This document shows, one piece after another, positions 191 through 45,150 of a stretch of DNA of 64,000 nt. The stretch comes from Escherichia coli. Lineage in GTDB: Bacteria > Pseudomonadota > Gammaproteobacteria > Enterobacterales > Enterobacteriaceae. The notes under the pieces are model-generated. The model was not told where the DNA came from. It saw nothing but the letters and a program-made list of their open reading frames with translations, and ran no database searches. A program made the position numbers and the translations under genes. Every line of letters begins with the position of its first letter. The first letter of the stretch is position 1. The stretch lies in the NCBI RefSeq assembly GCF_024298765.1, contig NZ_CP101210.1; one strand, 5' to 3'.

Positions 191-433
191 TCATTTTTCA
201 TGGCACAGGGTAGATCTGGCGTGGTTGTCCGCTTTGTGCCAACAGCGGACGTTACTAACGAAACTGTGAGTTAAAAACGGGAGCTGGTCACCTCCATCCC
301 GCGAAATGGAATTCAAAAATGCCCTCATGTACGGTACTTCTAGTCTGATGTGAGCATTTTCGTGGATTTTTTCGAGCCACTCCAACGAATGATTACATTC
401 AGTTTCGGGCACTAAAACGTCATAAATCCGCAA
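191..433 (-). CDS. hypothetical protein (80 aa)
   Basis: ORF in the six-frame track; no recognisable family; may be spurious. Confidence 0.2.
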   Translation of the reverse strand: MRIYDVLVPETECNHSLEWLEKIHENAHIRLEVPYMRAFLNSISRDGGDQLPFLTHSFVSNVRCWHKADNHARSTLCHEK

Positions 434-662
434 GTTGAGGAGTAGCGATCAGCCAATTGGTTAAAAAACAGCTTTAATTCCCTTTTTCAAGCAGGCTCCT
501 TGTCGCACGTCTGGTGCATCCAATTCATTTCAGTTACCCTGATGCCATACTGGCACGGACTAGCTCTCTTAATTGGCGCTGGTTTGTTAACCTTGTCCGC
601 TGTCGGGTCTTTGTAAGTTGTAATTCCTAAACTAGCATAATTTTATTATAAGGCCTCTTACT

Positions 663-1688
663 ATGCACATTTTATCTGTTTCAAAAAAGGAAGTTGGAAG
701 AGCTGGGGATAGATTAGTTTCTCAGTTTGGTACAGGTGAAAAATATAAAGAGGAAGATGTACAAATTCTTCATGAGTGGAGGATGTTGCATTTATATCCT
801 TTAAGTAAAATACAATTTTATATGGAAAGAGAGGCTATTTCCTTAAACAAAAATGCGTTACTATCCTCTAGAATTAAGAGGATGCCTTCCATTGTTACTA
901 AGCTTTCTAGATTTCCTGATATGAAGTTAAATAAGATGCAGGATCTTGGTGGGTGCCGGGCTATTTTAAATAATCTGGATCAAGTGTATGATTTAGTTAA
1001 TAAAATAAAATCATCTAAATTCTCACATGAACTAGTTAGAATGGATGATTACATGATAGACGTGAAAGATTCTGGTTATAGAAGCTTTCATATGGTCTAT
1101 TCATTCCAAAATAAAAAATTTCCATCTTTAAATGGGTTGCGCATTGAAATGCAAATAAGAACAGCTATTCAACATAGCTGGGCTACAGCAGTTGAAATGG
1201 TTGGTTTGTTTCGAAAGGAATCATTGAAATCTGGTTTTGGTGATGCAAGATGGCTTAGGTTTTTTGAATTGGTATCAGAGCTTTTTTATAAACTTGAGTA
1301 TGAAAAAGAACCATCTGGGAGTTATATAAAAATATCAGAAGAATTAAGTTATTTATCCGTCGAGTTGAATGTTTTCGATATATTAGCTGCTTACAATGCC
1401 GTAGTTAGCCATATTGAGGGTAGCAAAAAATATGATAAAGGACTTTGCATAATTGTTGTTGATACCATAAAGCGGAATATAAATATAAAGAGCTTCGAAA
1501 ATCACAATCATGCGAAGGCGGCAGAAGCTTATGTCGAGTCTGAAAAATACTGCGCGGAAAATAAAGGCTGTGAAGTGGCTATGGTTTCTGTTAGTTCAAT
1601 TAGTGAATTAAAAAATGCATATCCTGCTTACTTTTTAGATACGAAAACTTTTTTAAATTATCTCAGTAGGTATGTTTTTATAAAATAA
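663..1688 (+). CDS. RelA/SpoT-domain nucleotidyltransferase (small alarmone synthetase-like, toxSAS/CapRel-like) with fused C-terminal domain of unknown function
   Basis: 341-aa ORF. Synthetase-fold motifs visible in the translation: RIKRMPSIVTK (RxKxxxSxxxK), DLGGCRAI (DxxGxR), GYRSFHMVY (compare GYQSLH of Rel enzymes), EMQIRTAIQHSWA (E-x-Q-I-R-T...H). About 140 aa of C-terminal extension without a recognised motif. Visibly AT-rich relative to flanks. Confidence 0.7.
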   Translation: MHILSVSKKEVGRAGDRLVSQFGTGEKYKEEDVQILHEWRMLHLYPLSKIQFYMEREAISLNKNALLSSRIKRMPSIVTKLSRFPDMKLNKMQDLGGCRAILNNLDQVYDLVNKIKSSKFSHELVRMDDYMIDVKDSGYRSFHMVYSFQNKKFPSLNGLRIEMQIRTAIQHSWATAVEMVGLFRKESLKSGFGDARWLRFFELVSELFYKLEYEKEPSGSYIKISEELSYLSVELNVFDILAAYNAVVSHIEGSKKYDKGLCIIVVDTIKRNINIKSFENHNHAKAAEAYVESEKYCAENKGCEVAMVSVSSISELKNAYPAYFLDTKTFLNYLSRYVFIK

Positions 1689-2121
1689 AAAATGTTATCT
1701 GGAGTGGTCTGAATTCTACTAACTTAGTTTTTTCAGACCGCTTCTGACCACAATGGCCTGTGAGGTTCTGCTGCTAGTCAACATAAAATAACAAAGCCGG
1801 CAGGTGGTGGTTGTTGTAAAGTTATTCAATGACATTCATGGAGGCTTAAGCGAATTATTTGTCCCTGGTCGGTATGGTGGCAACAGCTTGTTGCGAGAAT
1901 TTGGCTAATTTGGACTGACTTCCGCTCCTTGCTCAAAGCGGACTAGAAGGTTAGCTTGTGTCGGACTTTGCGTATTAAAAGAAGTGCTGGTGGTGACTAG
2001 TGGTTGAGCCCCATTTCCACAGAAAAAATCAGAGAAACTATACCCAATAGTTGTATTGAATCACTGACGAGACAGCCTCATATTCATCAGGACTGGTGTA
2101 CGTCCAATACAGGAGGTTGTG

Positions 2122-2211: not shown

Positions 2212-2422
2212 TTTCATATTGGCGAGGTAAAGGTAGTTAAGTAGAATGGCTGCGGGTGCTTGAGGCTATCTGCCTCGGGCATGAACACCAAAGGCAGATA
2301 GAGAAAAGCCCCAGTTAACATTACGCGTCCTGCAAGACGCTTAACATTAATCTGAGGCCAATTTCATGCTAGACACATGTAGGTTAGCCTCTTACGTGCC
2401 GGAAGGCAAGGAGAAGCAGGCT

Positions 2423-2578
2423 ATGAAGCAGCAAAAGGCGATGTTAATCGCCCTGATCGTCATCTGTTTAACCGTCATAGTGACGGCACTGGTAACGAGG
2501 AAAGACCTCTGCGAGGTACGAATCCGAACCGGCCAGACGGAGGTCGCTGTCTTCACAGCTTACGAACCTGAGGAGTAA
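2423..2578 (+). CDS. hokD: Hok-family type I toxin HokD (RelF)
   Basis: Translation MKQQKAMLIALIVICLTVIVTALVTRKDLCEVRIRTGQTEVAVFTAYEPEE matches HokD as I recall it; the track ORF 2366..2578 extends 19 codons upstream in frame. Confidence 0.8.
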   Translation: MKQQKAMLIALIVICLTVIVTALVTRKDLCEVRIRTGQTEVAVFTAYEPEE

Positions 2579-2794: not shown

Positions 2795-3046
2795 ATGATG
2801 AACATCGAAGAACTGCGTAAAATTTTTTGTGAAGATGGCCTCTATGCTGTGTGCGTTGAAAATGGAAATCTTGTTAGTCATTACCGCATTATGTGTTTGC
2901 GAAAGAATGGGGCTGCGTTAATTAATTTTGTGGATGGTCGAGTGACAGACGGATTTATCTTGCGCGAAGGTGAGTTTGTCACTTCATTACAGGCACTGAA
3001 AGAGATCGGAATAAAAGCAGGCTTTTCAGCTTTTGCAGAAGAATAA
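2795..3046 (+). CDS. rem: prophage protein Rem-like (83 aa)
   Basis: 83-aa ORF at the position and size of Qin rem, between hokD and ydfU; assigned by synteny and length. Confidence 0.5.
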   Translation: MMNIEELRKIFCEDGLYAVCVENGNLVSHYRIMCLRKNGAALINFVDGRVTDGFILREGEFVTSLQALKEIGIKAGFSAFAEE

Positions 3047-3112
3047 ACTCATCTACAATCTTGCGCGGGGCTGAACTCCCGCTGAGTAACACCGTGCCAC
3101 CGGAGAAAACCG

Positions 3113-4455: not shown

Positions 4456-5208
4456 ATGAACCTTGAAGCCTTACCAAAATATTACTCCCCAAAATCTCCA
4501 AAATTGAGCGATGACGCTCCAGCGACAGGCACCGGTTGTTTAACAATTACGGATGTAATGGCAGCGCAGGGGATGGTGCAGTCGAAAGCACCACTTGGGT
4601 TGGCCTTATTTCTGGCAAAAGTTGGTGTTCAGGACCCTCAGTTTGCGATTGAAGGCCTGCTAAATTACGCGATGGCACTGGATAACCCGACATTGAACAA
4701 ATTGAGTGAAGAAATCCGGTTACAGATTATTCCTTACCTCGTGAATTTTGCCTTTGCTGATTACTCCAGGTCTGCGGCAAGTAAGGCTCGCTGTGAGCAT
4801 TGTTCAGGTACGGGATTTTATAATGTATTGCGCGAAGTGGTGAAACACTACAGACGCGGGGAATCTGTAATCAAGGAAGAATGGGTGAAGGAACTATGTC
4901 AGCATTGCCATGGTAAGGGCGAAGTCAGCACAGCGTGCAGAGGGTGTAAGGGTAAAGGGATTGTTCTGGATGAAAAAAGAACCCGGTTTCATGGCGTACC
5001 GGTATATAAGATTTGTGGGCGTTGTAATGGAAACCGATTTAGTCGTTTACCGACCACGCTGGCACGACGTCATGTCCAGAAGCTGGTACCAGACCTGACC
5101 GATTATCAGTGGTATAAGGGGTATGCGGACGTCATTGATAAACTGGTAACAAAGTGCTGGCAGGAAGAAGCATACGCGGAAGCGCAATTGAGGAAGGTGA
5201 CGAGATAA
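4456..5208 (+). CDS. quuQ: late-gene antiterminator Q-like protein with DnaJ-type CxxCxGxG zinc-finger repeats
   Basis: 250 aa, matching the length of Qin Quu[25 protein letters not shown] motifs; immediately upstream of a late promoter/terminator pair. Confidence 0.6.
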
Positions 5209-5340: not shown

Positions 5341-5883
5341 TGCTTTAAATGGGGCAATAGAGATATTGAATCTCATCCCGGGATAAACATTGGCAGTTGA
5401 AGGTCCACGCGAACCATTTATCCGGCAAAATTCCACGCGTAATCCTGTGGTAATTTCTTCTGCATCTCGAAGATTGAGAGCTGAAACGTGAAGCTGGGCA
5501 TCGATACGCCATCGGATGGGAATATAAGACCTTTGCTGCTTTTGTAGTCAAAGTTTTTGACAATTCCTGTCATTTTAGGGGACAGAAAAACTCCTTAATA
5601 CTGATAACCTGGTGCACCATACACACGTTCCTGGAGAAAACTACTTTTTTGATAGGGTTGAAGGTGGCTGGATGTCTAAAATAAACATTGCTTCATATGT
5701 TCAACTATGAGTTAATGACTGCGTCGGTTTGAAGAACAGACGATATACGAAGTAGTTTACTAAAGCAGTTCTCATTTCAGGTGTTATTCACTTATTCCTT
5801 CTTTGAGTCTCTCCAATTAAGTACGAAGTCGTTTCTGTTATGCAAACCATTTATGCCGAAAGGCTCAAGTTAAGGAATGTAGA

Positions 5884-6099
5884 ATGTCAAATAAAATGAC
5901 TGGTTTAGTAAAATGGTTTAACGCTGATAAAGGTTTCGGCTTTATTTCTCCTGTTGATGGTAGTAAAGATGTGTTTGTGCATTTTTCTGCGATTCAGAAT
6001 GATAATTATCGAACCTTATTTGAAGGTCAAAAGGTTACCTTCTCTATAGAGAGTGGTGCTAAAGGTCCTGCAGCAGTAAATGTCATCATTACTGATTAA
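5884..6099 (+). CDS. cspB: cold-shock protein CspB-like
   Basis: 71 aa [64 protein letters not shown]...; RNP-1-like KGFGFI motif; long upstream leader typical of csp genes. Confidence 0.8.
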
Positions 6100-6380
6100 A
6101 ATTCATCGCTCGTCTGTATACGATAACGAAGAAGGCTGATGCCTGAGTAGAGATACGGACAGAGTAGTGAATATTGGATCTCTTTAATAAAAAGTAAGGA
6201 GGTCCAATACATGAAACAATGGCCAGCATATTTGGCAAAATCTTAATCAGGAAAAGTATGCTAACCATTGTGGTGAAGTGCAGGTTTGCTGCATGAATAG
6301 TTTTACAGCAGAAGCTAACTGCTGGCATGGCAAAACAAAGTGCGTAAGTGGATGACTCCCACAAAAAGCACCACAATCTC

Positions 6381-8408: not shown

Positions 8409-8771
8409 GGTAATATTAAATCGGAACATTTACATCGCGGAATGTAAAATTTAAATAAAAAGGACTCTTCCATGAGCCAAAATTCCTGAAATCTTAAGGG
8501 TAAGATAAAAGGTCTTAATCAGAATGACACGTTTTATTAATAAATAAAGCTATTCTTTCATTGCTGTGTTTTTCTTTACAAAAGTAATCCTTGCTATGGG
8601 TGGTTAATCATGCGTTAATGGTGTTCTGGTTTGTTACAAATTTATCTGAAGCAGTCATTTTTATAATTTTATTATTTGTACCTCTTGAGATTTCCTTGTT
8701 GGTTTTTCTCTCTGATATTTTTTTTTCGGACCATTCTGCCCAAGGGCTAATTTCTTCAAAAGGTAATAATT

Positions 8772-8984
8772 ATGTCTAACAAAATGACTGGTTTAGTGAA
8801 ATGGTTTAACCCTGAAAAAGGTTTTGGTTTCATCACGCCGAAAGATGGCAGCAAAGATGTGTTTGTCCATTTCTCAGCAATTCAGAGCAACGATTTCAAA
8901 ACATTAACTGAGAATCAGGAAGTTGAATTTGGTATTGAGAACGGACCTAAAGGTCCTGCCGCTGTTCATGTAGTGGCGCTTTGA
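8772..8984 (+). CDS. cspI: cold-shock protein CspI-like
   Basis: 70 aa [70 protein letters not shown]. Confidence 0.8.
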
Positions 8985-9015
8985 GGTAGACAATATTACA
9001 AACCATATTCACTTT

Positions 9016-33381: not shown

Positions 33382-33983
33382 TGGCATTCAGAATGAGTGA
33401 ACAACCACGGACCATAAAAATTTATAATCTGCTGGCCGGAACTAATGAATTTATTGGTGAAGGTGACGCATATATTCCGCCTCATACCGGTCTGCCAGCA
33501 AACAGTACCGATATTGCACCGCCAGATATTCCGGCTGGCTTTGTGGCTGTTTTCAACAGTGATGAGGCATCGTGGCATCTCGTTGAAGATCATCGGGGAA
33601 AAACCGTCTATGACGTGGCTTCCGGCGACGCGTTATTTATTTCTGAACTTGGCTCGTTACCGGAAAATGTCACCTGGTTATCCCCGGAAGGGGAATATCA
33701 GAAGTGGAACGGCACAGCCTGGGTGAAGGATACGGAAGCAGAAAAACTGTTCCGGATCCGGGAGGCGGAAGAAACAAAAAACAGCCTGATGCAGGTAGCC
33801 AGTGAGCATATTGCGCCGCTTCAGGATGCTGTGGATCTGGAGATCGCAACGGAGGAAGAAACCTTGTTGCTGGAAGCCTGGAAAAAGTATCGGGTGTTGC
33901 TGAACCGTGTTGATACATCAACTGCACCGGATATTGAATGGCCAGCCCTACCGTATGGTAAGATATATAAATTCTATAATTAG
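33381..33983 (+). CDS. tfa: tail fibre assembly protein Tfa-like
   Basis: 200 aa starting in a TAATG overlap with the stf stop. Confidence 0.75.
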
Positions 33984-44836: not shown

Positions 44837-44879
44837 GCTCCGTTTAACATTCATTGAGAAAACTGATGCTAATGTGTCA

Positions 44880-44980
44880 ACGATCCGTTATCAGTGCAGG
44901 AAAATGCCTGTTAGCGTAAAAGCAAAACACAAATCTATCCATGCAAGCATTCACCGCCGGTTTACTGGCGGTTTTTTTTC
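44880..44980 (+). ncRNA. mgrR: candidate small RNA (MgrR-like), ending at an intrinsic terminator
   Basis: Downstream of dgcZ: GTTTAA element at 44842-44847 and extended -10-like TGCTAATGT at 44866-44876, then about 96 nt to the hairpin CCGCCGG-TTTACT-GGCGG plus T-run (44952-44980). Assigned from memory that MgrR lies next to mgtS; could be only the dgcZ terminator. Confidence 0.35.
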
Positions 44981-45054
44981 GCCGTCATAAAAATCAGGCC
45001 CCTTGTACACAGTTGTAACAAGGGGCCGGTTAGGTGAGGGATTATCTCCGTTCA

Positions 45055-45150
45055 TTAGTCATCCCATTTGTGGCTGAAATACGCGGCCAGAAAACCAGAA
45101 AATAAAATTATTCCCAGTACGGCCATAAAAACATTCATATTACCCAGCAT
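45055..45150 (-). CDS. mgtS: small membrane protein MgtS (YneM), 31 aa
   Basis: Minus-strand translation MLGNMNVFMAVLGIILFSGFLAAYFSHKWDD; GGAGG ahead of the ATG; GC hairpin downstream (44997-45031). Confidence 0.75.
   Translation of the reverse strand: MLGNMNVFMAVLGIILFSGFLAAYFSHKWDD

Follow-up and report, generated by a model that had tools for sequence, protein, structure and literature searches.

CapRel proteins are among the few bacterial immunity proteins in which the sensing of a phage protein is understood structurally; CapRel(SJ46), of Salmonella phage SJ46, was reportedly described by Zhang et al. in Nature in 2022 and 2024. Here we examine a distant relative encoded in a stretch of 64,000 nucleotides from Escherichia coli (contig NZ_CP101210.1, assembly GCF_024298765.1; the whole stretch is hereafter called the window, and positions are counted from its first letter). 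The gene in question lies at positions 663..1688 of the plus strand, within a prophage, and encodes a protein of 341 amino acids. By analogy with the studied CapRels, it is probably a single-polypeptide fused toxin-antitoxin (TA) of the CapRel family carried as prophage cargo, an autoinhibited tRNA pyrophosphokinase that would act in phage-triggered abortive infection.

Several features of the described systems bear on this proposal. In CapRel(SJ46), residues R79 and R116 coordinate adenine and Y155 is the tyrosine of the G-loop (PMC9712102), and a YXXY motif is the plug of the ATP site in autoinhibited CapRel (PMC9712102, PMC11782079). Substitution of any of the CapRel(SJ46) interface residues A77, R116, V338, L339, A341 or A351 makes the protein constitutively toxic. 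Among the toxic small alarmone synthetases (toxSAS) more widely, a pseudo-zinc-finger domain (pZFD) with YXXY blockade of the donor site is reported to be coupled to enzymes that target translation; in producers of (pp)pApp, Tis1-like domains obstruct the acceptor site instead (PMC11782079). The N-terminal region of one toxSAS, FaRel2, has been implicated in tRNA recognition (PMC11782079). A hairpin of the CapRel(SJ46) pZFD contacts the capsid protein (PMC9712102), and CapRel(Ebc) of Enterobacter chengduensis, 70% identical to CapRel(SJ46), is triggered by Gp0.4 of phage T7 together with host FtsZ (PMC13423816).

Family assignment

The gene is an uninterrupted open reading frame (ORF) of 341 codons with an ATG start in a program-made ORF list. 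The frame is closed upstream by a stop at 633, and an AAGG that resembles a Shine-Dalgarno sequence lies roughly 10 nt 5' of the start codon; at the identical RefSeq locus the gene product is WP_000547812.1, annotated as a 'RelA/SpoT domain-containing protein'. An earlier reading of the window from its letters (below, the sequence-only reading) had proposed a fused CapRel-like toxSAS here on the strength of four synthetase motifs, and a check of the sequence found all four in the 341-aa protein:

RIKRMPSIVTK, aa 70-80
DLGGCRAI, aa 94-101
GYRSFHMVY, aa 138-146
EMQIRTAIQH, aa 162-171

The proposed identity was borne out by sequence, profile and predicted fold alike. The RelA_SpoT profile (PF04607) was the sole significant domain in a Pfam search, at aa 69-175 with E=1.1e-17, as that reading had anticipated. 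When the protein was compared with the PDB by phmmer, the top matches were the CapRel(SJ46) entries 7ZTB and 9ERV, both titled 'Salmonella tRNA pyrophosphokinase CapRel', which aligned almost end to end (query 6-338 against chain 15-370, E=2.6e-34, 28% identity); the alarmone synthetases RelQ and RelP followed in the same search at about 1e-10, spanning aa 67-177 only. Pairwise BLASTP against CapRel(SJ46) likewise gave 28% identity, with E=5e-40, and a tblastn search of phage genomes located the homologous gene in Salmonella phage SJ46 itself (28.5% identity, 98% query coverage). The protein also matches the PADLOC model PDC-S33 (PDLC04999) over nearly its whole length (E=5.3e-119, 396 bits, protein 4-338 against profile 6-342 of 349), as do its distant homologues, and it matches phrog_4773 as well. 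CapRel(SJ46) is itself a full-length match to PDC-S33 (290 bits, E=7e-87), so that PDC-S33 is in effect the fused-CapRel family.

The sequence-only reading had seen no recognisable motif in the C-terminal 140 or so residues and had suggested that they might form a distinct sensor; the region does have a recognisable motif, and its fold is not that of a novel sensor. The C-terminal 91 residues alone match the antitoxin region of CapRel(SJ46) (residues 302-370, E=7e-8), a YXXY motif lies at 319-324, and the domain, though diverged (about 26% identical), is homologous to the pseudo-zinc-finger antitoxin domain and is flanked by anchor helices. Judged on these comparisons, the 341-aa protein is a divergent member of a known and characterised family that PADLOC already models. 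It sits on a much deeper branch than the studied members, because it is 28% identical to CapRel(SJ46) whereas CapRel(SJ46) and CapRel(Ebc) share 70%.

Domain architecture and conserved residues

The coding sequence divides into five regions, for which the helices are those of an AlphaFold2 model built from an alignment of 110 homologues that includes CapRel(SJ46):

663..845, plus strand: N-terminal three-helix region (aa 1-61; helices 8-24, 30-41 and 44-61)
846..1214, plus strand: toxSYNTH catalytic core (aa 62-184; PF04607 at aa 69-175)
1215..1412, plus strand: helical 'anchor' linker from toxin to antitoxin domain (aa 185-250; helices 195-213, 220-234 and 237-248)
1413..1595, plus strand: pseudo-zinc-finger domain, the presumed sensor (aa 251-311; beta-beta-alpha-beta)
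1596..1685, plus strand: switch region, with the YXXY motif followed by the C-terminal anchor helix (aa 328-338)

Conservation of individual residues was scored in the same 110-sequence alignment. The N-terminal region, by analogy with FaRel2 a putative tRNA-recognition region, carries a family motif (W39-R40-x2-H43-x2-P46-L47) in which R40 is invariant and the other positions nearly so. In the catalytic core, the donor-site residues (R70, K72, S76, K80, R83, D94, G97, R99, E162 and Q164) and the G-loop pair G138-Y139, with roles assigned from FaRel2 and CapRel (PMC11782079, PMC9712102), are all invariant or nearly so, and R70, R99 and Y139 align with R79, R116 and Y155 of CapRel(SJ46). Because these donor-site and G-loop residues are conserved, the toxSYNTH domain appears catalytically competent, as a prediction from sequence.

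The anchor linker aligns with alpha7 to alpha9 of CapRel(SJ46), and the YXXY motif (A319-Y320-P321-A322-Y323-F324, or AYPAYF, at nt 1617-1634) aligns with A351-Y352-P-N-Y355-F, which places A319 on A351 and Y320 and Y323 on Y352 and Y355. In the 110 sequences P321 never varies, and A319, Y320 and F324 are kept in at least 90%; at position 323, a 20-member alignment (A2) has Y 17 times and F three times. Among the six interface residues of CapRel(SJ46) named above, R116 and A351 are identical in the 341-aa protein and four are conservatively changed. The pZFD has neither CxxC pairs nor a conserved set of Cys and His residues in the homologue alignment. Zinc binding through H281, H283, C296 and C302 was considered and rejected: the two histidines and C302 vary even among close homologues.

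The AlphaFold2 model has a mean predicted local distance difference test score (pLDDT) of 87.4 and a predicted template-modelling score of 0.85. Past the catalytic core it consists of three long helices, a beta-beta-alpha-beta unit, short helices near the YXXY motif (one of them, 321-324, inside the YXXY segment) and the terminal helix 328-338. The pZFD comprises two strands (260-267, 272-278), a helix (283-299) and a third strand (303-310), with pLDDT values of 80-87 in this part. The anchors and pseudo-zinc-finger domain of CapRel have the same topology (PMC9712102), and the C-terminal domain of the modelled protein is accordingly of the CapRel pZFD type, as far as the prediction goes. A Foldseek search of the PDB returned 9ERV_A and 7ZTB as the top matches, in alignments of about 350 columns (E=8.5e-21 to 1.6e-19, template-modelling scores 0.69-0.70), so the structural comparison with the CapRel C-terminal domain that the sequence-only reading had proposed yielded a full-length match; RelP and RelQ matched at about 1e-8 in the catalytic domain only. 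The root-mean-square deviation of the model from CapRel is large (about 10 Å), which would fit an altered relative position of the domains, for example if the model is closed and the crystal form open.

Variation along the protein is uneven. At all three levels of divergence the pZFD (251-311) has the lowest identity and the highest entropy; conservation is strongest in the catalytic core and the YXXY region. The CapRel papers describe the identical pattern of variability, in which the pZFD sets phage specificity (PMC9712102, PMC11578894).

Distribution and genomic contexts

The gene is rare in its species. It was found in 41 of 5,426 complete E. coli genomes (0.76%), always on the chromosome and always in a prophage, and the 40 full-length E. 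coli copies are 99.8-100% identical. Strain DAX4 has only the last 164 nt of the gene (NZ_CP126343.1 2276764-2276927), a deletion remnant, and in strain GPEC1258 (NZ_CM142782.1) an IS903B has inserted within the 3.4-kb region; these two cases show ongoing decay or turnover of the cargo.

Homologues occur well beyond E. coli: at 57-86% identity in other Enterobacterales and Aeromonas, and at 35-47% identity in Vibrio, cyanobacteria, Burkholderia and others, nearly all of them about 340-370 aa long. A paralogue in E. coli (65% identical) stands alone in a different lambdoid prophage, in the opposite orientation, between the Q antiterminator and holin genes. A Serratia homologue (66% identity; locus L012, 2845-7030) lies between an HxsD/radical-SAM pair and three tandem genes of the dCTP-deaminase family, a neighbourhood that looks like a defence island, and a Klebsiella homologue lies in an integrase-bounded island with DndB-like and ParB-like genes and a type I restriction subunit. 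No partner gene is common to these four contexts (the window, the other E. coli prophage, Serratia and Klebsiella), and therefore the gene is best described as a single-gene system.

A prophage slot with exchangeable cargo

The element that carries the gene is a Qin-like lambdoid prophage, and within it the gene occupies a short strain-specific segment whose limits are as follows:

251..1930, no strand assigned: strain-specific cargo of about 1.68 kb, containing the CapRel-like gene alone, with the end of a DUF977 (YdaW-like) gene on its left and hok/sok on its right
228..249, plus strand: left boundary hairpin TCCGCT-N10-AGCGGA
1921..1942, plus strand: right boundary hairpin TCCGCT-N10-AGCGGA

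Homology of the flanks to strain B1.H1.18 stops at 250 and restarts at 1931; in other genomes, matches to the left flank stop at about 250-255 and matches to the right flank start at about 1918-1931. Among the strains sampled (comparison loci L005, L006, L007, L018, L019, L020 and L002), otherwise near-identical Qin/Rac-like prophages hold eight different contents in this slot:

the CapRel-like gene, PDC-S33 (window)
a DUF4209 protein, PADLOC PDC-S39 (sibling prophage)
two hypothetical proteins (UTI89)
a 326-aa hypothetical protein (strain 042)
a 340-aa hypothetical protein (strain IMT16316)
a 195-aa hypothetical protein (sibling prophage)
a NUDIX hydrolase, with a weak match to PDC-S07, and a HAD hydrolase (sibling prophage)
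relBE (K-12)

Because sibling prophages hold unrelated cargo between the same flanks, the exchange at a prophage hotspot that the sequence-only reading had proposed is supported, and the locus is a clean natural example of cargo exchange of this kind. Most of the cargo genes are not annotated as defence genes, and may be candidates for that role. The 340-aa cargo protein of IMT16316, similar in length to the 341-aa protein, was examined as a possible relative and rejected as unrelated.

The 22-nt boundary sequence occurs just twice in the 64-kb window, where 0.03 copies are expected. The left hairpin is kept in sibling prophages, with divergence starting directly 3' of it. Strains IMT16316 and Ec-U11 likewise have unrelated cargo enclosed by the hairpin pair, and sequences part exactly at the hairpins. 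Among the comparison loci, the hairpin sequence lies at 4599-4620 and 6306-6327 in L018, at 3038-3059 and 4504-4525 in L020, and at 7974-7995 in L002. The 5' arm of the right hairpin has been replaced in two strains, and in K-12 just one hairpin is present, located between flxA and ydfW. As RNA, the two hairpins are no more stable than shuffled sequences (z=-1.66 and -0.55), and are therefore unsupported as terminators; the heptamer GTCCGCT by itself is not enriched across the window (8 occurrences against 6.4 expected). The hairpins are significant because of their position and recurrence, and they may be recombination boundary sequences of the slot.

In base composition the ORF stands apart, with 32.6% guanine plus cytosine (GC) against 49.4% for the whole window. 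The sequence-only reading had called both the gene and its flanks (about 480-2300) AT-rich; this applies to the ORF and fails for the flanks, which at 43% GC (256-662 and 1689-1930) and 45.8% (1931-2408) are similar to the neighbouring phage DNA (45.9%). Downstream of the gene, 12 nt 3' of its stop codon, lies a prominent structure:

1700..1745, plus strand: strong stem-loop with a 13-bp stem (inverted repeat I5)

The RNA fold of 1689-1760 has an energy of -25.1 kcal/mol (z=-5.25), and none of 200 shuffles was as stable. The stem-loop has no U-run behind it, and may be a transcript terminator or an mRNA stabiliser.

Comparison with K-12 and the hok/sok locus

In the Qin prophage of K-12 the gene order is relB-relE-hokD-rem-ydfU-ydfT, and in the window it is the CapRel-like gene followed by hokD-rem-ydfU-ydfT; the statement in the sequence-only reading that relB-relE lies directly upstream of hokD in K-12 was thus verified. 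DNA identity to K-12 starts abruptly at about position 2409 of the window, at the hokD ribosome-binding site. Upstream of that point the window has an element that K-12 does not:

2254-2428: sok/leader element (full match to Rfam RF01794; 117 bits, gathering score 59)

The hokD locus of the window (2254-2578) is complete, with the sok leader and a mok-like ORF of 70 codons that overlaps hok, whereas K-12 hokD has neither the leader nor the mok-like ORF. The relBE-hokD junction was found in 1,172 genomes and the window-type leader in about 1,854. On this sequence comparison the K-12 arrangement is a 5'-truncated hok locus, and the window has the intact form. The idea of a TA cassette exchange consequently needs qualification: the position of the slot is as proposed, and a simple swap of one TA for another is not what the alignment reveals, since relBE is not a clean replacement for the CapRel-like gene when the hok regulatory leader has gone as well.

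Just beyond the hokD locus, positions 2587-2668 give a sub-threshold match to the Rfam family isrK, an Hfq-binding small RNA (25.7 bits against a gathering score of 50). The hokD terminator hairpin (2647-2664) falls within the matched stretch and probably accounts for the match.

Proposed function and alternative explanations

We can picture the action of the protein from CapRel(SJ46), CapRel(Ebc) and the pair FaRel2:ATfaRel2, from which the steps that follow are inferred. In the uninfected cell the pZFD would fold back onto toxSYNTH, as in CapRel(SJ46) and FaRel2:ATfaRel2, and Y320 and Y323 would insert between R70 and R99, so that the ATP (pyrophosphate-donor) site is blocked and the full-length protein is harmless. 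When a foreign phage infects, one of its proteins, by itself or with a host protein, would bind the variable surface of the pZFD and anchors and hold the protein open. The open enzyme would use ATP to pyrophosphorylate tRNAs at the adenosine of the 3'-CCA end, and with the tRNAs modified, aminoacylation and translation would stop and the infection would be aborted. We prefer tRNA over nucleotides as the target because CapRel is the closest relative and because of the coupling of the pZFD and YXXY motif to translation-targeting enzymes. The trigger is not predictable, since even CapRels that are 70% identical sense unrelated proteins. More tentatively, and with our own judgement leaning slightly to the other side, we suggest that this compact, deep CapRel clade may sense a class of trigger new for CapRel (another phage protein or a phage-perturbed host factor), and that the slot may serve Qin/Rac-like lambdoid prophages as a site dedicated to the exchange of defence cargo, with the hairpin pair as recombination boundaries.

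Several observations weigh against a functional, phage-sensing CapRel. Overall identity to characterised CapRels is just 28%, and about 26% in the antitoxin part as compared with CapRel(SJ46). Four of the six interface positions at which substitution makes CapRel(SJ46) constitutively toxic are changed (A77 to S68, V338 to A306, L339 to M307 and A341 to S309); S, A, M and S at these positions are common in the clade of the 341-aa protein. A promoter scan upstream of the ATG gave zero sites and no excess over shuffles, and thus no convincing sigma-70 promoter; inspection by eye found merely a weak TTGTAA-19 nt-CATAAT. The near-identity of the 40 E. coli copies (99.8-100%) makes them uninformative on selection. 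As for the literature, neither the accession WP_000547812 nor PDC-S33 is mentioned in any paper of the library searched, and a wider search on toxSAS and CapRel returned zero studies of the clade.

The alternatives differ chiefly in what the enzyme would do and for whom. It is unlikely that the protein is a toxSAS aimed at metabolism, making (pp)pApp or (p)ppGpp in the manner of FaRel, Tas1 or GRel/Pag1B and acting through nucleotide depletion or alarmone signalling. The toxSYNTH fold is common to both classes, the alarmone synthetases RelQ and RelP are the next-best matches, sequence gives no certain reading of substrate choice, and the anti-phage toxSAS Pag1B does make pppGpp (bioRxiv 10.64898/2026.04.06.716658); but by far the closest full-length relative is the tRNA pyrophosphokinase CapRel(SJ46), the N-terminal helical extension is conserved with CapRel, a pZFD with the YXXY donor-site lock is reported to be specific to translation-targeting toxSAS (PMC11782079), and a partner gene of the PANGU (NAP) or SAH type is absent nearby in the window and in three homologue contexts. 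An ordinary small alarmone synthetase of the RelQ/RelP/YjbM kind, serving stringent-response-type regulation for host or prophage, is effectively refuted: the PDB matches to RelQ and RelP and a weak match to the NCBIfam YjbM/RelQ equivalog NF053588 speak for it, yet the latter scores 57.6 bits, far under its cut-off of 320, and covers aa 67-176 only, the similarity as a whole is confined to aa 67-177, CapRel N- and C-terminal domains stand in place of the oligomerisation helices of RelQ and RelP, and the gene is present in just 0.76% of E. coli genomes, always in a prophage.

The remaining alternatives concern the system to which the toxin belongs. A functional fused TA could serve mainly as an addiction or stabilisation module, or be selfish or silent cargo without meaningful anti-phage protection. 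Its place beside a hok/sok addiction-type locus, at the position of K-12 relBE, would suit such a role, as would the failure of the scan to find a clear promoter, and the DAX4 remnant and the nearby IS903B in another strain mean that the gene is dispensable. Classical post-segregational killing is nevertheless impossible with an antitoxin fused in cis and hence as stable as its toxin; moreover, every fused CapRel characterised so far acts in defence (PMC9712102, PMC11578894, PMC13423816), and homologues lie beside defence-type genes in Serratia and Klebsiella, so that we regard this explanation as improbable. Many toxSAS are bipartite (FaRel, FaRel2 and PhRel), and about 400 nt upstream and 240 nt downstream in the same cargo (256-662 and 1689-1930) are unannotated, which would leave room for a separate antitoxin gene. 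The ORFs in these flanks are, however, short, started by TTG or GTG, or straddle the cargo boundary; no adjacent co-oriented antitoxin gene is annotated or conserved in the flanks or in the four homologue contexts, where the neighbours differ; and an antitoxin domain is already fused in cis. A two-gene system is thus highly improbable, and the fused, phage-triggered CapRel remains the explanation that we favour.

Other features of the window

Further along the prophage, cspA-type thermoregulator 5' untranslated regions occur at 5723-6146 and 8625-9011, ahead of homologues of the prophage cold-shock genes cspB and cspI; for the cspF homologue between these two, the annotation of the identical RefSeq locus gives a frameshifted pseudogene. 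From about 11350 to 34650, 3' of the lysis genes, large ORFs follow one another in a single orientation, encoding proteins of up to 1,137 and 988 aa; by size and order these look like terminase, portal, capsid and tail genes, and the prophage may be largely intact, unlike the defective Qin of K-12. Rfam searches also gave an IS009 match at 33724-33922 and, in the chromosomal part of the window, a strong match to the Hfq-binding small RNA STnc560 at 44848-45061 (278 bits).

Comparison with known systems

The known systems resemble the 341-aa protein to different extents. RelQ, RelP and YjbM have the same catalytic fold and donor-site motifs, but they make (p)ppGpp as housekeeping enzymes, form oligomers by way of their C-terminal helices and have no pZFD. 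GRel/Pag1B, of PANGU type I (bioRxiv 10.64898/2026.04.06.716658), is a toxSAS effector against phages and has a regulatory domain at its C-terminus; unlike the 341-aa protein, for which none of these properties was seen, Pag1B needs a separate NAP activator gene, is tetrameric, has an acidic DNA-mimic domain and makes pppGpp. PhRel/ATphRel (gp29/gp30 of mycobacteriophage Phrann) and FaRel2/ATfaRel2 employ the same antitoxin principle, a pZFD with YXXY blocking the ATP donor site (PMC11782079), and the toxSYNTH domain of gp29 is homologous (26.5% identity over aa 67-259); in both systems toxin and antitoxin are separate genes, whereas the 341-aa protein is fused and partner-free. PDC-S33, the single-model candidate that the protein matches at full length, is a computational label and not a characterised system.

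The closest likeness is to the CapRels. CapRel(Ebc), likened here by description (the 28% identity of the 341-aa protein refers to CapRel(SJ46)), has the same family and architecture, and illustrates that in close CapRels the C-terminal anchor and pZFD recognise triggers that are unrelated to each other. With CapRel(SJ46) (7ZTB, 9ERV) the 341-aa protein shares an end-to-end alignment, the order of domains (N-terminal helices, toxSYNTH, anchors, pZFD, YXXY switch and C-terminal helix), the catalytic R/R/Y residues and YXXY motif, and membership of PDC-S33. Both are prophage-borne, although the carriers differ: a Qin-like lambdoid prophage here and a P1-like phage-plasmid for CapRel(SJ46). The E. 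coli protein is 32 aa shorter, and it has neither the nine-residue toxSYNTH loop insertion of CapRel(SJ46) ('DGGATNNAI') nor the long pZFD hairpin ('RNAITKNGK') by which CapRel(SJ46) meets its capsid trigger.

The CapRels studied to date (SJ46, Ebc and Kp) are close relatives of one another, and a member from E. coli that is 28% identical leaves current understanding unchanged and extends the known family. Because its catalytic and autoinhibitory elements are kept and its sensor is smaller and much altered in comparison with that of CapRel(SJ46), the 341-aa protein offers a practical test case for sensor divergence.

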